A DNA stretch of 14,567 bases from Candidatus Eiseniibacteriota bacterium (GTDB lineage: Bacteria > Eisenbacteria > RBG-16-71-46). Shown here piece after piece: positions 145-14,372 of this stretch. The notes beneath the pieces are model-generated. The model did not search any database. It saw nothing but the letters and a program-made list of their open reading frames with translations, and was not told where the DNA came from. The position numbers and the translations under genes were made by a program. Location: the NCBI GenBank assembly GCA_031364845.1, contig JANLWX010000106.1, positions 1-14,567 on the forward strand, read 5' to 3'. Numbering within the stretch: position 1 is the first letter of the stretch; each line of letters opens with the position of its first letter.

Positions 145-1365
145 TCAGTATGAGAAGTGCGCCTGCGTGTAGAACTGCGTCTCGTCCTCGAAGCCGTAGG
201 CAGCTTCGTCGTCGTGATCAATGCGCCGCACGACCCAGCGCAGTTCGGCGAACGGCACGGGCACCCATTCGCCTTCGATCGCGTATCGCTGGTGCTGGTT
301 CGCCGAGCGCAGCGCGTCGCTGCTGCTGCGATCGGGATTCAGGTAGTCGTAGCGAAGGCGAAAATTGACCGTGCGCCCCGCGGCGTAGTCGATCTCGCCG
401 AAGCCCGCGAGTAGATTCGTCTTGGCGCCGGTGACGAACCCGGGAACCACTGATGGAGCTTCGTCGGTGCCTGCGGCTATCTCGCCGATGACCGAGAACC
501 GGCCATAATTGCCGAGACCGTAGTAACCCCAGCGGGTCGAGCGCTTGAGTCCGAGCGCAGGCCGCTTGAGGTAGGCGTCGTAGAACGAAAACCCGCCCTG
601 ATAGTGGCTGTTGTGGTAGCCCAGCTTCACCGACTTGGTCTCGGCGAATCCACCGTTGAACAGGTTGGCGGGCCCATTGGTCAAAGCGAGCCGACCATAC
701 AATGGACCGCGCTCTCCACCGACTTCGACGCCCATGTCCGGATCGCGCGGATCGTAAGGCAGGAACCGTTCGCCCCCGCTGAAGTCGAGGTAGCCGTTGC
801 GCGTCGAGACGGTGTGATCGTCGAGTCGCAGTCCGAACGGATTGCGAAAGCGGCCGATCTTGAGATAGGCGGCGCCGGGGAGCCCGATCTTGCCGAACGC
901 TTCCTTCTGATCGACACCCCCGCCTGCTCCGCTGCTGAACGCGTCGCGGCTGTACACGAGCGTCAGCTTGTCGTGCGGCTGGAAAGTCAGATGGATCGAG
1001 TTCTCCATCGCGAAGAATCCGAACCGGTCGAGCGAATCCGACTGGGTGGACGTGTTCGTGAGCAGCATGAAGCGCTGGTTGAGACCGATGTAGACCGGCA
1101 TGCGGTCCCCGATCTTGTTCGTGAGATCAAGATCCTTCCACGGACTCGTTTCGCCCTCGGGTTCGATGCTGTGCCGGTTGCGCGCGAACATGAAGCCGTA
1201 GTCGTTGCGCGGGCCGCCGCCGTTCGGATCGAAGTGGCACTGCCCGCACAGATTTCCGGTGCGCGCCGCCCACAGCGGCGTGGTCTGGGCGCGTTTCGCG
1301 ACCAACAGCGAGCCGAGCGAGAGGATGAGGAGCAGCAGCGGAAACACGCGGACGAGACGGCGCAT
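145..1365 (-). CDS. Monoheme cytochrome c / outer-membrane beta-barrel (porin) fusion protein, Cyc2-like architecture, 406 aa
   Basis: ATG at 1365 preceded by GGGAGG. Signal peptide MRRLVRVFPLLLLILSLGSLLVA. N-terminal PLWAARTGNLCGQCH carries a single CxxCH. The rest has alternating-hydrophobic, Gly/aromatic-rich beta-strands and ends FYTQAHFSY (terminal aromatic residue typical of outer-membrane barrels). The ORF-track extension to 1533 overlaps the hydantoinase B gene and was not used. Confidence 0.75.
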   Translation of the reverse strand: MRRLVRVFPLLLLILSLGSLLVAKRAQTTPLWAARTGNLCGQCHFDPNGGGPRNDYGFMFARNRHSIEPEGETSPWKDLDLTNKIGDRMPVYIGLNQRFMLLTNTSTQSDSLDRFGFFAMENSIHLTFQPHDKLTLVYSRDAFSSGAGGGVDQKEAFGKIGLPGAAYLKIGRFRNPFGLRLDDHTVSTRNGYLDFSGGERFLPYDPRDPDMGVEVGGERGPLYGRLALTNGPANLFNGGFAETKSVKLGYHNSHYQGGFSFYDAYLKRPALGLKRSTRWGYYGLGNYGRFSVIGEIAAGTDEAPSVVPGFVTGAKTNLLAGFGEIDYAAGRTVNFRLRYDYLNPDRSSSDALRSANQHQRYAIEGEWVPVPFAELRWVVRRIDHDDEAAYGFEDETQFYTQAHFSY

Positions 1366-1414: not shown

Positions 1415-3091
1415 TCAGGTGTCAGAATCCGGAAGGCGTCCGCGTCGCCTGACCGAAACTCGCGCGCGCGGGCGGCGTGTGCCGGAATCGGGAGTTCCCG
1501 CTTCAAGCCCACGGCGTCCGTGCCCCCCACCACCGGGGCTCGCCAGCGTTATCACCGCACCCGCCGGCAGGTCAACGAGGAACTTGCCCGGCATCCGTCG
1601 GGCGGCCGTCCCTGGACGTTCGCGCACGCGGTTCTCGCCCGCCTCCCCCGGCGCGCCACCGGCGAGACCGTAAGGTCCACGGCGCCTGCGATCGGAGATC
1701 ACGGTGACACGCGCCGGAGCGCGCAACTCGATCGAGCGCACGATGCCATCGCCGCCGCGATGCTTCCCTGCGCCACCGCTGCCCCGGCGCACGCGTGTCT
1801 CGACCACGCGCAGCGGATACGCATGCTCGAGACTTTCGACCGGCGTGTTGCGCGTGTTGGTCATGTGCGCCTGCATCGCTGAAGCGCCATCCCACCCCGG
1901 CCCCGCGCCATGTCCGCCGCCAAGCGTTTCGTAGTACGCGAACGGCTGGCCGGAGCGCGGATCGCGTCCGCCGATCAGCAGGTTGTTCATGGTGCCGCTG
2001 CTGGCCGCGGGCACGCGGTGTGGCAGCGCGCGCGCGAGCGCGCCGAGCACGACATCGACGATGCGCTGCGAGGTTTCGACATTGCCGGCCGCGACGGCGG
2101 CGGGTGGCAGCGGATTAACGACCGTGCCCGGCGGTGCGACGACCTCGATGCGCGCGAGCGACCCGTGGTTGATCGGGAAATCTCCGCCCAGCACGCAGCG
2201 CATCGCGTATGTGGACGCGGCACGGGTGACGGCTTCCGCCGCGTTCACCGGGCCCGCTGTCTGCGGACTCGATCCGGTGAAGTCGACCCGCGCGCGGTCA
2301 CCTCCGAGCGTTAACCGCACGCGGATCGGGATCGGGCCGTTGCCGAGACCATCGTCGTCGAGTGCGTCTTCGAACGTGAACGCGCCGCGCGGCAGCGCGC
2401 GCAGCGCATCGCGCACGCAGCGCTCGGCGTAGTCCATCAACGCGGCCGCGGCGCGCTGCAATGTTTGCAGGCCATGCGCGTGAGCCATCTCCACCAGCCG
2501 CCGCTCGCCGGTGTGCTGTGCGGCAAGTTGCGCGAACAGATCCGCGCGACGCTCGCGCGGCGTGCGAACGTTCGCGAGCATCAGTTCCAGCACGTCCTCG
2601 ACGACGATTCCTTTGCGCATGAGATGCACGGGCGGAATGCGAAAGCCTTCTTCGTAGACTTCGCGCGCGAGCGGCATCGAGCCGGGGGCGGCACCCCCGA
2701 TGTCGGCGTGATGGGCGCGGCTCGCGACCAGGAAGTCAGGGGCATGCGATCGCCGCCGCCCCGCGTACACCGGCGACACCAGCGTCACATCGGGCAGGTG
2801 CGTGCCCCCGGCAAACGGATCGTTGAGCATCACGACGTCGCCGGCGGCGAGCACACAACGCTCGAGCACGACTTCGACCGCGCGCGGCATGCTGCCGAGA
2901 TGCACCGGAATATGCGCGGCCTGAGCGATCAGGCGGCCGCAACCGTCGAAGATCGCGCACGAGTGGTCGAGGCGCTCGGTGATGTTCGGCGAGTGCGCGG
3001 CGCGCATGAGTGCGGTGCCCATCTCCTCCGCGGCAGCGGCGAACAGGCTTTGATGGAGCGCGAGTGTGGCGCCATCGAAGCGCGCGGTCAT
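1415..3091 (-). CDS. Hydantoinase B / 5-oxoprolinase family subunit B
   Basis: ATG at 3091 overlaps the upstream stop (TGATG). Motifs: EEMG..L.R.A.SPNI.ER.D.SCAIFD, HIPVHLGSM, NDPFAGGTHLPD, HHADIGG..PGSM, GTMNN, YYETLGGG, HMTNTRNTPVE.LE..YP, SGG.G..RGGDG, PGGGG.G. Confidence 0.93.
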   Translation of the reverse strand: MTARFDGATLALHQSLFAAAAEEMGTALMRAAHSPNITERLDHSCAIFDGCGRLIAQAAHIPVHLGSMPRAVEVVLERCVLAAGDVVMLNDPFAGGTHLPDVTLVSPVYAGRRRSHAPDFLVASRAHHADIGGAAPGSMPLAREVYEEGFRIPPVHLMRKGIVVEDVLELMLANVRTPRERRADLFAQLAAQHTGERRLVEMAHAHGLQTLQRAAAALMDYAERCVRDALRALPRGAFTFEDALDDDGLGNGPIPIRVRLTLGGDRARVDFTGSSPQTAGPVNAAEAVTRAASTYAMRCVLGGDFPINHGSLARIEVVAPPGTVVNPLPPAAVAAGNVETSQRIVDVVLGALARALPHRVPAASSGTMNNLLIGGRDPRSGQPFAYYETLGGGHGAGPGWDGASAMQAHMTNTRNTPVESLEHAYPLRVVETRVRRGSGGAGKHRGGDGIVRSIELRAPARVTVISDRRRRGPYGLAGGAPGEAGENRVRERPGTAARRMPGKFLVDLPAGAVITLASPGGGGHGRRGLEAGTPDSGTRRPRARVSVRRRGRLPDSDT

Positions 3092-5091
3092 CACGACGCG
3101 CCGCGCGTGAGCACGAGCGCGCCGCGCGCGTGGCGGCGCGCGGTCCAGCCCGGGGCCACCCACAGGGTCGCACCGGCCTCGAGCACGAGCGCCGGGCCTC
3201 GCGCAGTGAAGCTGGCGCCGAGCGCCTCCATGCGCCACACGGGCGTCGCGAGCTTGCGGCCGCCGTGATGCACCGCGACCTTCGGCTCGTGCCGCGTTGC
3301 TCCGCGCGTGCCAACACGTGCAGGCCGTGGCATCGATTCTCCGGGCAAGGATGCGCGCACTTCGAGCGTCACGACTTCGACGGCGGCGGTGCGGACGTCG
3401 TATCCGTAGCGCCGGTGATGCTCGGCATGGAAGCGCTGCGCGAGATCGCCGCGCGCATCGACCGACAGCTCGTGCGCCTGCCCTCGATAGCGTGCTTCGG
3501 CCCGGTATTCCATCTTGAGCCCGCCACGTTCGCGGGGCGCGAACTCGCCGCGCACCTCCGACTCGAGCGCGCGCAATGCGCGGGCGATCGCGCGCGGATC
3601 GCCCGCATCGAGCAACACCGAGCGGCTCCGCTCGCGCCGCGAACCTCCGCCGAGCGCGCCGAGCGCCGAGAGCACGCCCGCGTGCAGCGGAAACAGCACC
3701 GCGCAACCGAGCGTTTCGGCAAGCCCGCACGCGAACAGTCCACCCGCTCCGCCGAAGCTCACGAGTGCCGCGCCCCGCGGATCATGACCGCGTTCGACCG
3801 ACACGCGCCGCAACGCGGCCGCCATGTGTGATTCGGCGAGCGCCACCACGCCTTCGGCCGCGCGCATCGCGTTGCGGGCCCCGAGCGCCCGCGTCAGCCC
3901 GTCGATCGCGCGTTGCGCGGCGGCGCGATCGATCGGAAACGTCCCGCCCGCAAGCGCCTCCCCCGGAATCCGGCCGAGCACGACGAGCGCGTCGGTCACG
4001 GTGGGCGGACCGCCGCGCCCGTAGCACGCGGGCCCGGGAACCGACCCCGCGCTCTCGGGCCCGACATGGAGCAGTCCGCCGGCATCGACCCGCGCGATCG
4101 AACCACCACCGGCGCCGACCGTATGCACGTCGAGCATCGGAAGCTGAATCGGAATCCCGGCGATCTCCCGCGCGCGACGTCGCGGAAGGCCGCCGTCGAG
4201 ATACGCGCAGTCGGTCGAGGTGCCGCCGACGTCGAGTGTGAGCGCGGTGCGAAACCCTGCGTCGCGCGCGGCGGAGTGCGCCGCGCTCACGCCCGCGGCC
4301 GGACCGGACAGAAGCTGGCGCGCGGGTTCACGCGCGGCACGCCTGACGGGTGCCGTGCCGCCATGCGACAGCACGATCTCGAGACCACGGCCCGCACGGT
4401 TCGCGAGCGCTCCGAGATAAGTGGCGACGCGCGGAACCAGGAACGCGTTCGCGACCGTGGTCACGAAACGTTCGTACTCGCGAACTTCGGGACACAGATC
4501 GGAAGAGCGTGTGATGGGAACTCCAAGCCCGCGAAGCGCGCGCTCGAGCGCGCGTTCGTTCGCGGGATCGGCGTAGGAGTGCAACAAGCCGATCGCGATC
4601 GCCTCCGGCCGGGTGGCGGCCACGGCGCGTCGCACGCGCGCGATCTCGGCCGGCGTCAGCTTCTGCCACGGCTCTCCACGGGGTCCGGTGCGCTCGCGGA
4701 CACCGACACATCGATTCGCAGGCACCAGCGGCTCCGGGCGCCGTGGTGCGAGCGCGTAGATGTCGGGGCGGTCCTGCCGGCCGATCGCGAGCAGATCTTC
4801 GAAGCCCGCCGTGGTGACGAACGTGACGCGCGCGCCTTTGCGCTCGAGCAACGCGTTGGTCGCGACCGTCGAGCCATGCCGCACGCGCGAGGCACGAGTT
4901 GCCCCGAGGCGTTCGAGACCTTGGAGCACCGCGCGGTCAGGCGCGTCCGGAGTCGACGGCAGCTTGAGTGTGACCAGACGCCCGTCCGCGAATCCCACGA
5001 AGTCGGTGAACGTTCCACCGGTGTCGATGCCCGCGGCCGCCAGCCGGGAGACCGGCTTTCGAGATTTCGATCGCGCCGCGCGCGCGGTCAC
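3091..5091 (-). CDS. Hydantoinase A / 5-oxoprolinase family subunit A (ATP-binding)
   Basis: GTG at 5091 overlaps the upstream stop (GTGA), with GGAG upstream. Motifs: GIDTGGTFTD, HGSTVATNALLERKG, LLSGPAAG, DVGGTSTD, GAGGGSIA, GPESAG..PGPACYGRGG.PTVTDA, FGGAGGL, RYRGQ.HEL. Confidence 0.93.
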   Translation of the reverse strand: MTARAARSKSRKPVSRLAAAGIDTGGTFTDFVGFADGRLVTLKLPSTPDAPDRAVLQGLERLGATRASRVRHGSTVATNALLERKGARVTFVTTAGFEDLLAIGRQDRPDIYALAPRRPEPLVPANRCVGVRERTGPRGEPWQKLTPAEIARVRRAVAATRPEAIAIGLLHSYADPANERALERALRGLGVPITRSSDLCPEVREYERFVTTVANAFLVPRVATYLGALANRAGRGLEIVLSHGGTAPVRRAAREPARQLLSGPAAGVSAAHSAARDAGFRTALTLDVGGTSTDCAYLDGGLPRRRAREIAGIPIQLPMLDVHTVGAGGGSIARVDAGGLLHVGPESAGSVPGPACYGRGGPPTVTDALVVLGRIPGEALAGGTFPIDRAAAQRAIDGLTRALGARNAMRAAEGVVALAESHMAAALRRVSVERGHDPRGAALVSFGGAGGLFACGLAETLGCAVLFPLHAGVLSALGALGGGSRRERSRSVLLDAGDPRAIARALRALESEVRGEFAPRERGGLKMEYRAEARYRGQAHELSVDARGDLAQRFHAEHHRRYGYDVRTAAVEVVTLEVRASLPGESMPRPARVGTRGATRHEPKVAVHHGGRKLATPVWRMEALGASFTARGPALVLEAGATLWVAPGWTARRHARGALVLTRGAS

Positions 5092-9067: not shown

Positions 9068-10240
9068 TCAGAGGCCGTGCAACGCGGCCGCGAGGTCGGC
9101 GCGCAGGTCGTCGAGATCCTCGATCCCCACCGAGAGCCGCAACAGTCCGTCCGCAAACCCCATCGCGAGCCGCGCATCCCGCGGAACCGAGGCGTGGGTC
9201 ATCGAGGACGGGTGGCACACCAGGCTCTCCACGCCTCCGAGACTCTCGGCACGGGTGAACAGCTTGAATCGATCGAACACGCGGCGGCCGGCCTCGAGCG
9301 AACCGTCGCCCGGGACGAACGAGATCATGCCTCCGAAGCCGCTCGCCTGACGCTTCGCGAGTTCGTGCTGCGGATGGCTCTCGAGCCCGGGATAGAACAC
9401 TGCCGAAACCCGCGCATGAGCCGCCAGTGAGCGGGCGAGTGCGATCGCGTTGGCGTTGTGCCGCTCCATGCGCACGGCCAGCGTCTTGGTGCCGCGCAGC
9501 GCAAGCCAGCAGTCCATCGGCCCGGGAACGGCGCCCGCGGCGTTTTGCAGGAAGCGCAACGACTCCGCCAGGTCTTCGTGACTCGTGATCAGAGCCCCCC
9601 CGACCATGTCACTGTGCCCGTTCAGATACTTGGTCACCGAATGCAGCACGACATCGCAGCCCAGCTCGAGCGGGCGCTGGAAATAGGGCGTCATGAACGT
9701 GTTGTCCACCACGACCCGGGCACCATGGCGATGGGCGATCTCGCTGGTCGCCGCGAGATCTACCAGGCGCATCATCGGATTGGTCGGGGTCTCGACAAAC
9801 ACGAACTTCGTCGTGGGCTGGAACGCGCGCTCGATCTCATCGAGGTCGCCCCCGCCGACGTAGGTGAAGGTCAGGCCGAAACGCCGGAACACGCGCTCGA
9901 ACAGCCGGAAGGTCCCGCCGTAGAGGTTGTCGCCCGCGATCACGTGGTCGCCCGCCGACAGCGTGTGCATCAGCGTGGTCGTGGCCGCGAGGCCCGAGGC
10001 GAAGCAGAAGCCGTGACTGCCGCCTTCGAGCGAGGCGAGATTGTTCTCGAGCGCGAAGCGCGTGGCGTTGTGGGTGCGCGCGTACTCGAAGCCTTTGTGC
10101 TTGCCGAGCGCTTCCTGCGCGTACGTCGACGTCTGATAGATCGGCGTCGTCACCGCTCCCGTCGTCGGATCGGGCGATTGGCCCGCGTGAATCGCGCGCG
10201 TGCTGAAACCGGATTCGCGGGTCAGCGACTGATCGCCCAT
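9068..10240 (-). CDS. Cystathionine gamma-lyase / gamma-synthase (Cys/Met metabolism PLP-dependent enzyme)
   Basis: ATG at 10240 overlaps the CBS stop (TGATG). Motifs: F.TRAIHAG, PIYQTSTY, YAR..N.TR, FASGLAA, YGGT.R, ETPTNP, DNTF.TP, PLP-lysine motif SVTKYLNGHSD, ESLGGVESL, RLSVGIE. Pairing with CBS favours gamma-lyase (reverse transsulfuration). Confidence 0.93.
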   Translation of the reverse strand: MGDQSLTRESGFSTRAIHAGQSPDPTTGAVTTPIYQTSTYAQEALGKHKGFEYARTHNATRFALENNLASLEGGSHGFCFASGLAATTTLMHTLSAGDHVIAGDNLYGGTFRLFERVFRRFGLTFTYVGGGDLDEIERAFQPTTKFVFVETPTNPMMRLVDLAATSEIAHRHGARVVVDNTFMTPYFQRPLELGCDVVLHSVTKYLNGHSDMVGGALITSHEDLAESLRFLQNAAGAVPGPMDCWLALRGTKTLAVRMERHNANAIALARSLAAHARVSAVFYPGLESHPQHELAKRQASGFGGMISFVPGDGSLEAGRRVFDRFKLFTRAESLGGVESLVCHPSSMTHASVPRDARLAMGFADGLLRLSVGIEDLDDLRADLAAALHGL

Positions 10241-11628
10241 CACTCGCCTCCCGCGATGAACTGCAGCATGTCGTAGCGCGTGAGGATCCCGATGATCGCG
10301 CCATCGCGCTGCACCAGCACCGCGGGGTCGCGCACCAGGAGCTTCGTGATCTGCTCGGCGTGCTCATCGGCGCTCACGATTGCGAGCGGCTCCTTCATCA
10401 TCGCATCCACCGGCCGGTCGATTGCCGCGGGATTCGACATCGCGGCTTTAAGAATTTCACTCTCCTCGAGCGTGCCGATCACGTCGTTTCCGCGCATGAC
10501 CGGGATCTGGCTGATGCCATGCTGCTGGATCAGCTGCAACGCCGCCTTGAGCGGGGCACCGGAGCTGACCGAGAGCAGCTGCGGAACCTTGCGCGACTTG
10601 GCATCGACCACCTGTCCCGCCGAGGAGGCGCCCGGATCCAGCAGGTGGTTGTCGCGCATCCACTCGTCGCTGTGCACCTTGGACAGATAGCGCTCGCCGG
10701 TGTCGGGCAGCAGCACGACCATCAGGTCGTTGGCGCTCAGGGTCTTTGCGTACTCGATCGCGACCCACACCGCCATGCCACCGGAACCTCCGGTGAAGAT
10801 CGCCTCCTCGCGCGCGAGCCGGCGCGCCATGTTGAGGCCATTGCGATCGGAGCACGACAGCACTTTGTCGATGAGCGAGAAGTCGAACACCGAAGGGATG
10901 AAATCCTCGCCCACGCCCTCGATCTTGTAGGTGTGAGCCTCGGACATCTTTCCGGTCTCGTGGTAATGACGCAGGATCGAGCCGATCGGATCCGCTCCCA
11001 CGACCTGGACCTTCTGGTTCTTCTCCTTGAGATAGCGCGCGGTGCCCGTGATCGTTCCGCCCGTGCCCATCCCGGCCACGAAGCACGTGATCTTGCCGGC
11101 GGTCTGCTCCCACAACTCAGGGCCGGTGCTCACGTAGTGCGCCTGCGGGTTCGCGGGGTTGTGGTACTGGTTCATCAGCACCGCCCCCGGGCGCTCGCGT
11201 TCGATGCGCTTGGCGACCGAGTAGTAGGACTCGGGCGACTCCGGCGCCACCGCGGTCGGGCTCAGCAGCACCTCGGCCCCGAACGCCTTGAGCAGGTAGA
11301 CCTTCTCGCTCGAGACCTTGTCGGGCATGCAGAACACCGCGTGATAACCGCGCACCGCCGCCACCATCGCGAGTCCGAGCCCGGTATTGCCCGAGGTGCA
11401 CTCGACGATCGTGCCACCCGGCTTGAGCTTGCCCTCGGCCACCGCGGCATCGACCATCGCGACGCCGATCCGGTCCTTCACGCTGCCACCGGGATTGAAG
11501 TATTCGACCTTCGCGAGCACCGGGCACGGGCTGTGGGCCGCGACTTTGCGCAGGCGCACGAGCGGGGTATTGCCGACCGTCTGAAGGATGTTCTCGTGAT
11601 ACCGGACACCCTCGAGGGCGTTGGTCAC
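10240..11628 (-). CDS. cbs: Cystathionine beta-synthase (PLP-dependent, with C-terminal CBS-domain pair)
   Basis: GTG at 11628 with AGGAG upstream. Motifs: VGNTPLV, KVEYFNPGGSVKDR (PLP Lys), TSGNTG, NQYHNPANP, GMGTGGT, IEGVG, PDTGERYLSK. C-terminal CBS repeats (ISQIPV..., GILTRYD). The ORF-track start at 11859 crosses a terminator and promoter. Confidence 0.92.
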   Translation of the reverse strand: MTNALEGVRYHENILQTVGNTPLVRLRKVAAHSPCPVLAKVEYFNPGGSVKDRIGVAMVDAAVAEGKLKPGGTIVECTSGNTGLGLAMVAAVRGYHAVFCMPDKVSSEKVYLLKAFGAEVLLSPTAVAPESPESYYSVAKRIERERPGAVLMNQYHNPANPQAHYVSTGPELWEQTAGKITCFVAGMGTGGTITGTARYLKEKNQKVQVVGADPIGSILRHYHETGKMSEAHTYKIEGVGEDFIPSVFDFSLIDKVLSCSDRNGLNMARRLAREEAIFTGGSGGMAVWVAIEYAKTLSANDLMVVLLPDTGERYLSKVHSDEWMRDNHLLDPGASSAGQVVDAKSRKVPQLLSVSSGAPLKAALQLIQQHGISQIPVMRGNDVIGTLEESEILKAAMSNPAAIDRPVDAMMKEPLAIVSADEHAEQITKLLVRDPAVLVQRDGAIIGILTRYDMLQFIAGGE

Positions 11629-11733
11629 TGCGGCTGCTCCTGACGGAAAGTGGGGGCGAGGTGGGGTGGCCGGCGCGCCTCGGGCGCGCGATGGGCGCGC
11701 GCAACGAGGCCGCATGCTCTGGGCCGAACCGGG

Positions 11734-11782: not shown

Positions 11783-11817
11783 AAAGTGCAACAGCCCCCG
11801 GCGGGCGCCGGGGGCTG
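11783..11817 (-). terminator. Intrinsic terminator-like hairpin after the selenoprotein gene
   Basis: Perfect 11-bp stem CAGCCCCCGGC/GCCGGGGGCTG (11792-11817) with a 4-nt loop, then a weak U-tract TTGCACTTT on the minus strand. Confidence 0.65.
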
Positions 11818-11842: not shown

Positions 11843-13270
11843 CTAGTGCGAGCCGCCACCCTTCATCATGCCGGTCTCGCTGCCCATCTTGTTCTTCTTG
11901 TTCTTGATCGTCTCACCCGAGAAATTGCTGTGGGCGATCTTGGGCAGCTTCTTCTCCCAGTTCCACTCGGGATCGTTCTCGCCCTGGTGACAGGTGATGC
12001 ACACCTGCTCGGTGACCCGGTGCGGAGCGGTCGCGAATGCCTCGTGCTGCGTGCCGATCCCGTGGCAGTTCTCGCACTGGACGTTCGAGAGGTGCGGCGT
12101 CGCCGTCTGGCTCATGAATCCACCCGGCTTCTGATAGCCGACCGAATGGCATCCGATGCACTCGGGCGTCGCGTCCTTCTTGGCGTTCACGAGCGTGGAC
12201 CATGCGACCGAGTGCGAGGTCGTCTTCCACTGCTCGCCCTCTTCGGTGTGGCATCGCATGCACAACTCGGCGCCGAGAAAGCGCTCGGGATTGTCCTCGT
12301 TCTTGATCTGCTTCTGCGCGTCCTGCTCCATCTGCGACTTGCGCATCTTCTCGTTGAACGCGTCCTCGAAGCTCTTGACCAGCGCCAGCACTTCGGGTTT
12401 CTCGCCGACCTCGGGGCTCAGGATGAACATGTCGTTCTCGCCCGCCAGCGGCTTGCCCTTGGCATCGATGGTGAACATCGTGCGGCCCATGTACTGACCC
12501 TGCTCGCCGCCGTAGGCGACGACCGTGTTCTTGATCAGGCGGCCCTTCTGGATCAGCGGGATGTTGCGGCCCGTGATCACGGCGTCCACGCCTGTCACCG
12601 CCGTCACCAGATCCTCGCTCTCGACCTTGCCGAGCTGCGACAGCAGGACGATCACGGTCGCTCCGCCCTTGCGAAGTTCGGCAATCGCCTTCTTCGCGGC
12701 GACCATCGGATCCTGGGCCACGAGCGAATCGCGCGCGGGTCCGAGATCGACCTTGTCGCTGATCAGGCCGAAGATGCCGACCTTGACGTTGCCGACCTTC
12801 TTGATCGTGTACGACTCGAAGACCGCCTTGCCCGTCTTCTTGTCGAGCAGATTGGCACAGGTGAGGTTGAGACCGGTGCGCTTCTGCTGCGACTTGAGCC
12901 ACGCCAGCCCGTACTTGAGGTCGCGCTCGCCCACGCCCACGGCGTCGGTGCCGAGCAGCTTCATCGCGTCCATCATGAACCACGCGACGTCGTGCTGATT
13001 GGCAACCTCGGGAAAGTATCCACCCGCATCGACCAGGAGCACCTGGCCGTACTGGGCATTCACGCTGTCAGCGAAACTGGCCCGCCGGGCCAGGCCCCCC
13101 TTGGGCGTGTGTCAGCCACACGGGCTGGTCTTCCCCTTGACGTCCGTCGTCGAGAGGATGATCAGCTTGTCGGGCTGCAGGATTCTGGGGGTGGTCGCGG
13201 CGACGAGCATCATGCAGCTCACCACGGCGAGAACCGCTGCCGCCAGAATTCGTGACGCGAGTGACCTCAT
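11843..13270 (-). CDS. Selenocysteine-containing UshA-like (5'-nucleotidase/metallophosphoesterase fold) protein fused to a tetraheme c-type (c554-like) cytochrome, 475 aa, Sec at codon 53
   Basis: ATG at 13270 with GGAG RBS. Reads MRSLASRILAAAVLAVVSCMMLVAA...LIILSTTDVKGKTSPCG-[TGA 13114-13112]-HTPKGGLARRASFADSVNAQYGQVLLVDAGG and continues in frame with ORF 11843..13063. SECIS-like hairpin follows the TGA. Four CxxCH motifs (CMRCH, CIGCH, CENCH, CITCH). Ends at TAG. Confidence 0.88.
13073..13114 (-). promoter_or_regulatory. Bacterial SECIS element candidate
   Basis: UGA, 18 nt, then CUGGCCC-GGC-GGGCCAG (13093-13077): a perfect 7-bp stem with a G-starting apical loop 25 nt after the UGA. The stem can be extended by G-U/G-C pairs (GGGG/UUUC). 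Fits the bacterial SECIS model. Confidence 0.7.
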
Positions 13271-13319
13271 GAAATGCTTCTCCGTGTCATGCGGGTGGGG
13301 TGCGATTCGAACTTCAGCG

Positions 13320-13349
13320 AGTGTACGGGGCGCATCGGAACAGCGTCAA
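13320..13349 (-). promoter_or_regulatory. Candidate sigma70 promoter for the selenoprotein gene
   Basis: Minus strand TTGACG-N18-TACACT, with the -10 about 50 nt upstream of the ATG at 13270. Confidence 0.55.
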
Positions 13350-13553
13350 GAACCGGGCCTCCCCATGGCGGCCGAGCGAATCGAAGTTGCGAATCGTTGA
13401 CACTGGCCCCGTCCATGGCCGTGACTCCCCCGCCAAACTCGTCGGGCGAGCGTTCACTCCGGCCGGCCGCGCGGGCTGGCGGTTCCGCAACCCGCGGGAT
13501 AGTCTCTGGCCGCGCCGATGGCGGCGCGATCCCAATTTCATCGCGGAGAGCGC

Positions 13554-14372
13554 GTGCACTACGAGACGCTGACCGAAACCGACTGGACGGAGATCGCGAA
13601 GATCTGGGATCTGCTCGACGAGGGCGGAGCCGAGGGCGCCCGCCAGGAATTGCGCGTTCGATTCCGCGTGCGCATGAAGCATCCGGACGTGCGTATCGTG
13701 GACGCCGCGATCTCGATCGAAGAGGGCGATCCGGTCCGCGCGCTCGAAGTGCTGGACGGCGCGGAGCGATCGGCCGATCCGGCGCTGTTCTTCCATCTGC
13801 GCGGGCTCGCGAATTTCGACCTGTGCCGTTTCGAGCAGGCTTGCGCCGACGCCGGCCGGGCGCTCGCGGTGCGTCCCGAGTTTCCAGATGCTCACGACCT
13901 GATGTCGCGCGCGCTCGAGCATCGCGGCGACGACGCCGGCGCCGCGGAGCACGCGGAGGAGGCGGCCGACCTGGACTCCGAACGCTTCCCGCTGCCGCTC
14001 GCGATCACTGACGCCGAATTCGACCAGCTCGTCGAGAAGAGCCTCGCCGAATTGCCGGAACCGGTCCGCAAGCACCTCGAAGAACTGCCGGTGATGATCG
14101 AGCCGCTGCCGACCGCCGCGATCCTCGGCTCGGAGAGTCCGCCGCTCCCGCCCGACATCCTCGGACTGTTCGTCGGACGCGACCTCATGAACCGCACTTC
14201 GATCGATGTCGCGAGCGCTCCGGGCGCGATCTACCTGTTCCGCAAGAATCTTCTGCGCTTCTGCCACACGCAGGAAGAACTCGAGAAGGAAGTGCGCGTC
14301 ACGGTCCAGCACGAGGTCGGACATCTGCTGGGGCTGGACGAGGATGATCTCGATCGCTGGGGGTTGGCTTAG
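13554..14372 (+). CDS. TPR-like repeat + Zincin_1-type metallopeptidase family protein
   Basis: GTG at 13554 after GGAG (alternative ATG at 13518). Helical TPR-like N-half ([11 protein letters not shown]......AL...P.F..AH). C-half: F..LV...[37 protein letters not shown] (HExxH). Confidence 0.85.

Follow-up and report, generated by a model that had tools for sequence, protein, structure and literature searches.

The window (the whole stretch of 14,567 nucleotides that was analysed) contains on its minus strand, at 11843..13270, a gene that comes out whole when one TGA is read through. The frame runs from an ATG at 13270 to a TAG stop ending at 11843, and holds this one in-frame TGA only (13112..13114, codon 53, in the context SPCG-U-HTPKGGLARRA). 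It gives a protein of 475 amino acids which, based on the read-through frame and an HMM match, we list as a selenoprotein of the NF041198 (UshA_like_PCGU) family. Without read-through a gene caller yields, from a GTG start, the leaderless ORF of 406 aa described in an earlier note on this DNA. The segment gained by read-through consists of a signal-peptide-like leader, the first strand (LIILSTTD) and the SPCG-U-HTPKGGLARRA stretch.

The ATG is preceded at 6 nt by GGAGAAG, which resembles a ribosome-binding site (13277..13283, minus strand). Further upstream lies a sigma-70-like promoter candidate, TTGACG-N18-TACACT (13320..13349, minus strand), picked by consensus match; the scan returned this 1 site against 0.1 expected in shuffles. 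Past the stop, an 11-bp GC hairpin with a weak U tail (11792..11817, minus strand) was noted by eye as a possible terminator, though it was not called in the scan that returned the promoter candidate. A signal peptide is predicted at about residues 1-25 (13196..13270, minus strand): the N-terminal end combines two Arg with a hydrophobic stretch whose 15-residue hydropathy reaches 2.59, and full-length Cys homologues show the same kind of start. The product is thus predicted to be exported. Two RNA runs (X15 and X18) gave short pieces only, most of them from relatives.

A contig from a second sample is identical over 13400-12945 (0 differences), which argues that the TGA at 13114-13112 is no sequencing error. 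Similarly, the genetic code is not reassigned, since TGA is the stop of 8 of the 10 window genes checked and release factor RF2 (prfB) is present in the genome; on both points the earlier reading stands.

Upstream of the selenoprotein gene, a divergent TPR-zincin gene (13518-14372, plus strand) is conserved in the nearest family. On the other side, 9068-11629 (minus strand) encodes a cystathionine beta-synthase (CBS, passing TIGR01137) and a cystathionine gamma-lyase-like (CGL) gene with overlapping stop and start; by eye, a promoter-like TTGACG-N18-TACGTT precedes CBS at 11763-11734. At 1415-5090 (minus strand) two long ORFs presumably resemble hydantoinase/oxoprolinase A and B. Finally, 145-1365 (minus strand) codes for an exported protein in which a porin-like region comes after a single N-terminal CxxCH (TPLWAARTGNLCGQCH); we take it to resemble Cyc2-type cytochrome-porin fusions. 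It has no Pfam match, and in the Atlas its neighbours (0.98-0.99) belong to clusters that are either unnamed or called 'porin family'.

Selenocysteine at codon 53

Among relatives, the position of the TGA is occupied by TGA or cysteine only. The 110 fetched loci gave 119 alignments that extend into the N-terminal part, and the codon could be obtained in 111; the other eight comprise four fragments or frameshifts and four copies with a CG-stop and a longer spacer. All 104 distinct copies carry TGA (62) or a Cys codon (42: TGC 25, TGT 17), and none carries the Trp codon TGG. The assignment of 13112..13114 (minus strand) to Sec53, within C51-G-U53, is based on these codons. On the tree, Sec and Cys have exchanged at least nine times, several times in tandem duplicates; PMC13188914 describes such swapping as an established pattern of a redox-active residue. 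In the tandem duplicates L108, L113, L115, L120 and L020, which have several origins on the tree, one copy carries Cys at the Sec position and no longer has the SECIS stem. These Cys-bearing copies are possibly selenium-independent backups.

A candidate SECIS hairpin, CUGGCCC-GGC-GGGCCAG (13077..13093, minus strand), begins 19 nt past the UGA, with its loop at 25 nt. It has a 7 bp stem and a GGC loop (-16.3 kcal/mol), and agrees with 4 of 4 bSECIS consensus rules as set out in PMC13188914. Of the 110,897 TGA trinucleotides in the genome, only 1.35% are followed by a hairpin of this kind (7 bp, GG loop, same distance), so chance is a poor explanation. A stem of six or more Watson-Crick pairs is found in 40/40 close and 12/22 distant TGA copies; for Cys copies the counts are 0/12 (close) and 0/30 (distant). 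In all 58 TGA copies the third base of the L/F/V codon can pair with that of the Ala codon (C-G 29, G-C 25, U-A 2, U-G 2), as it can in 5 of 10 Cys copies, and this pair has changed state at least seven times on the tree; compensatory synonymous changes in the stem are confined to TGA copies. Fold z-scores of the whole region, between -0.59 and 0.17 in three short windows and -2.27 over 101 nt, are uninformative.

The exact pattern of Cys-Gly-TGA followed by the SECIS core occurs in 136 of the 151 phylum genomes, from which it was partly derived, with 0 matches in the control; such conservation speaks against a pseudogene or an error. (In each of the phylum tallies, one row is an unpublished genome, G015.) The genome encodes selA, selB, selC (tRNA-Sec) and selD, the latter itself with a TGA, and selA is present in 144/151 phylum genomes. 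With codons, hairpin and machinery all in agreement, the UGA almost certainly encodes selenocysteine, as the earlier note had proposed; each of the three checks that the note named as able to refute it turned out in its favour.

The UshA-like gene does not by itself account for the Sec machinery of the phylum, as further TGA-containing proteins exist in the genome. In 6 of 7 other candidates tested the TGA lies inside a domain of the candidate's own family (in the seventh, C126, it is an ordinary stop). These further probable selenoproteins are FdhA, an AhpD-like CxxU protein, a DUF3179 UxxC protein, a SelW-like protein, a Prx-like TPGU protein and a Trx-TPR UxxC protein (L122-L127).

Domain architecture and family

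The protein very probably belongs to NF041198, although the HMM score is a marginal pass (276.4 bits against a cut-off of 275, E 4e-82, with U read as C). Model positions 2-270 match the UshA part and 351-518 the cytochrome part (11957-12439, E 1e-36), and the PCG-U/C motif follows strand 1 of the UshA-like domain as in the family model. We see no difference in kind from other members. The UshA-like/tetrahaem architecture proposed earlier is thus borne out, yet the fusion is not new, since the model already spans both domains; what was called a hidden selenoprotein is real and cut short by gene callers, but its family was already named.

Residues 35-311 (12338..13168, minus strand) form a 5'-nucleotidase/SoxB-type domain with a linker helix, according to the structure model and fold matches, and residues 327-449 (11924..12292, minus strand) a cytochrome c554-like tetrahaem domain, according to PF13435, alignment and fold. 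AlphaFold2 with 121 aligned rows models residues 35-449 at pLDDT 93.5 and pTM 0.86, which suggests a defined domain arrangement; in an earlier model with 32 rows the cytochrome was unresolved. Mean-field coupling analysis (359 rows, Neff 222) found pairs within the domains and no clear signal between them (best rank 44). Similarly, modelling both domains of the natural Cys homologue P0013 as a complex with four haems decided nothing either way (score 0.15, mark 0.32).

The N-terminal domain shares its fold and long linker helix with the 5'-nucleotidases UshA/CD73 and with SoxB (Z 33-35). It matches 2Z1A (Z 34.9, rmsd 2.3, 278 aligned), with SoxB 2WDC among the top matches (Z 33.0, rmsd 3.5, 283 aligned), and the whole protein has weak HMM matches to UshA, CpdB and SoxB. 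Unlike these enzymes, it has lost the dimetal ligands and catalytic His, has gained the CxU loop, and carries the c554-type cytochrome (PF13435) in place of the C-terminal nucleotide-binding domain. When an intact nucleotidase of this genome, encoded on C85, is used to anchor the positions, 1 of 8 metal or catalytic residues (DxH, GD, GNH, H, GHxH) is kept, namely D43; among 96 four-haem copies, N115 is found in none and the catalytic His in one. By these residues the nucleotidase site is judged dead. Despite the fold and HMM matches, an active 5'-nucleotidase or phosphoesterase is therefore most improbable, even when pooled with a pseudogene, a sequencing error or a reassigned code.

The residues in and around the CxU motif are nearly invariant. 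C51, C/U53, G58, G59 and R62 are invariant in all 96 four-haem copies from the fetched loci; among 108 independent representatives at 50% identity, C51 occurs in 106, C53 in 107 and R62 in 96. A quartet D/E/H/H, half of the old dimetal site, is kept in 46 of these 108, and its positions co-vary strongly. This might favour CxU as a metal ligand or structural bridge, in a protein that serves as a metal-binding, sensing or electron-carrier module, and eukaryotic 5'-nucleotidases also align with cysteines in the same loop. We nonetheless regard this as quite improbable: the present protein has lost the quartet (G84, E115, Q212, R235), yet Sec and SECIS are conserved, and selenium would seem superfluous for a structural bridge.

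In the cytochrome domain, CxxCH motifs start at residues 337, 371, 399 and 424. The fold matches cytochrome c554 of Nitrosomonas europaea (1BVB; Z 10.5, rmsd 3.0, 123 aligned), and in the alignment (E 1.2e-11) the first three CxxCH and His27 (here His353) correspond. Here the cytochrome is shorter than c554 (about 123 residues against 211) and fused behind the CxU domain, and no HAO context was seen. Seven His serve the four haems (341, 353, 375, 403, 409, 428, 447), as in c554 and in haems 1-4 of OcwA (6I5B), and no further His, Met or Cys is conserved at 60% or more in the domain. One haem is thus likely open. By analogy with c554, for which we assume the full haem-ligand map, this is likely to be haem 2 (C371-H375).

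Family members usually are truncated or mis-annotated in databases: as the earlier note expected of gene callers, the CGC region is absent from 88 of 120 database homologues. Among named relatives, Candidatus Eisenbacteria are the closest, and homologues occur in 148/151 phylum genomes with varied neighbours and, outside the phylum, in Acidobacteria, Gammaproteobacteria, Nitrospinota and others. A search at E<=1e-30 among 50%-identity representatives gives 5,590 proteins, a number that may include nucleotidases. The name 'UshA-like, CxU' (COG0737) is listed in PMC2398784, PMC9312934 and PMC13188914, so that such selenoproteins had been catalogued, as was stated earlier. The passages concerned give name, motif and example, and are silent on function, on haems and Eisenbacteria, and on the loss of the metal site. 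The family is also unmentioned in three searched supplementary files of PMC12545173, and UshA in PMC13326102 and PMC1976440; the literature searched on family or host yielded no functional study.

The genome has a second member at C46:31480-34905 (plus strand), a Cys form (ENCGC) whose frame of 1142 codons has a long N-terminal region ahead of four CxxCH. An earlier search for longer family proteins found none; long fusions are nonetheless present among the representatives. Eight of 22 long proteins carry DUF1573 Ig-like fusions (P0143, P0167, P0215, P0226, P0243, P0247, P0257, P0270), and at L064 and L065 a DUF1573 or peptidase-C39 gene lies directly upstream of the family gene.

Haem-less CxU/CxC paralogues also exist (L129, L130 and L132, also L033, L056, L077 and L131), some with lipoprotein-like leaders. 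They are found next to fused copies, and three genomes have tandem pairs in which neither copy is fused, showing that the haem link of the CxU domain is not obligatory. In 5 of 5 carriers of haem-less copies, separate tetrahaem c554 genes are present elsewhere in the genome, and nothing ties these to the CxU genes.

Possible roles of the CxU-haem pair

The protein thus presents a dead nucleotidase domain with a Cys-Gly-Sec pair, joined to a four-haem c554-type domain. We infer as a common core that CxU and the haem chain would exchange two electrons outside the cytoplasm. The earlier note went further, in suggesting an exported redox enzyme possibly acting on sulfur or selenium species; the redox role is plausible and export is predicted, but the substrate was a guess by analogy (with MccSep), and the gene neighbourhoods of relatives speak rather for DsbA-like thiol proteins.

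Our best explanation, to which we assign a probability of roughly 0.4, is an exported thiol:haem oxidoreductase for protein dithiols, either of a DsbA-like partner or of selected envelope proteins. It is favoured because relatives are fused to or lie beside DsbA-like proteins and because DsbB was found in 0 of the 71 phylum genomes searched. Sec53 would attack a substrate disulfide or dithiol, and Cys51 would resolve the adduct to a selenenylsulfide. Electrons would enter at haem 2, which probably has no distal His, and be passed by the remaining haems to a periplasmic acceptor, for example of the respiratory chain (cytochrome c assembly genes and a COX1 homologue are present in the genome). 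The oxidising direction, as a soluble stand-in for DsbB/VKOR, seems likelier than reduction or repair.

Directly downstream of the family gene, an exported DsbA-like CxxC gene is found in 2 of 23 distant loci, in two phyla (L055 and L084). A search with the L084 protein returned 69 metagenome loci, and 56 of them also have such a gene downstream, though these 56 are close kin and not independent, and the 13 misses are all distant matches. Moreover, 4 of 22 long representatives (picked by length from 149) have a weak DsbA-like match, two of them with CPHC or CIHC. VKOR occurs in 7 of the 71 phylum genomes, and neither DsbB nor VKOR was found in the genomes of L055 and L084. The possible job of re-oxidising DsbA-like proteins would be shared with DsbB, VKOR and DsbI (described in PMC5403849), which are unrelated membrane proteins, unlike the predicted soluble, haem- and Sec-based protein described here.

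With its presence in nearly all phylum genomes among varied neighbours, the gene behaves like a housekeeping gene of the envelope. In 15 of 49 loci (L012-L060) there is an LptD-like gene upstream, and 13 of 14 LptD-like frames have a Cys pair about 600 aa apart, judged by spacing only in unaligned frames. LptD needs Dsb proteins, as the title of a reference in PMC5403849 indicates.

Several observations speak against the thiol:haem reading. The genome has its own VKOR/DsbA-like fusion, the gammaproteobacterial carriers have DsbB (3/3), a DsbA-like family was found in only 11 of 41 phylum genomes, no DsbA-like gene is adjacent at this locus, and haem-less CxU paralogues include unfused tandem pairs in three genomes. 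Following a principle described in PMC5403849, we also looked for an even-cysteine bias among exported proteins, which were crudely predicted. None was seen, neither here (118/257, 0.46, against 0.46 for cytoplasmic proteins) nor in other carriers (G032 21/59, G055 10/26, G153 6/13). The test itself is weak, since its positive control shows only a trend (7/9 against 0.49, p 0.17) and no bias is seen here despite the VKOR-DsbA fusion. Given that fusion, the DsbB of gammaproteobacterial carriers, the scarcity of DsbA and the lack of Cys bias, a general substitute for DsbB is doubtful; a catalyst for selected substrates is possible. DsbB, VKOR and DsbI are quinone-linked. A third route to envelope disulfides, in which a soluble Cys/Sec-tetrahaem enzyme replaces DsbB/VKOR and passes electrons from DsbA-like proteins or LptD-type substrates to cytochromes instead of quinones, is an idea we put forward as rather unlikely.

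The main rival is a small-molecule enzyme resembling MccSep (ExtKL, NF040886), the polysulfide reductase of Geobacter sulfurreducens; here Cys51 would ligate the open haem 2, Sec53 would attack polysulfide, persulfide, thiosulfate or selenite, and Arg62 would bind the anion in the old nucleotidase/SoxB pocket. According to PMC13510729, MccSep is a periplasmic multihaem selenoprotein with conserved Cys, Sec and Arg; its haem 2 is His/Cys-ligated and lacks a distal His (as inferred here), the Sec comes from a separate domain at the distal pocket, and an Arg binds the anion. Haem 2 is also the active site in c554, OcwA and MccA, according to 10.1101/641308, and SoxB is among our best fold matches. 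Unlike the present protein, MccSep has five haems, an Ig-like Sec domain and a tetrameric state, and is found mainly in sulfur-reducing lineages (PMC13510729). NF040886 is absent from the 17 NCBIfam matches of our protein, which has four CxxCH, and MccSep from both sequence and fold matches (the fold result says little); the parallel with C51, U53 and R62 is an analogy only.

Gene context offers this enzyme some help, with CBS downstream in 19 of 80 loci and cystathionine gamma-lyase in 16 of 80. The link, however, is confined to the closest families, where it stands alongside unrelated genes (DUF4097, bactofilin), and CBS here seems to have its own promoter-like site (by eye). As support ends at local synteny, we rejected CBS/CGL as functional partners. 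No recurrent sulfur-respiration, porin or quinol-oxidase neighbour was seen among the neighbours scanned, the carrier phyla are varied, this genome has COX1, and Sec copies without haems exist. Overall we hold a MccSep-like activity to be unlikely.

Less likely still is a role in periplasmic antioxidant defence or repair, where the haems would feed CxU to reduce peroxides, oxidised Cys/Met or S-nitrosothiols, or where haem 2 would handle NO or H2O2. It would suit a genome with no fewer than six other proteins that contain an in-frame TGA, namely FdhA and five of thiol-redox or UxxC type (AhpD-like, SelW-like, Prx-like, Trx-like, DUF3179), as well as the near-universal presence of the gene in the phylum and the repeated origin of tandem Sec/Cys duplicates; against it, no recurrent donor of the DsbD/CcdA/MsrQ type is found among the neighbours scanned.

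Summarizing, the locus is one more member of a catalogued, uncharacterised family. This family matters for being large, near-universal in one uncultured phylum and usually mis-annotated, and its naturally occurring Cys homologues make it easy to test. Should the thiol:haem reading be true, the protein would serve DsbA-like proteins as a haem- and selenium-based partner where DsbB is not found. If it even replaces DsbB/VKOR, it would belong to the core selenoproteins of a whole phylum and to a widespread third route to disulfides.
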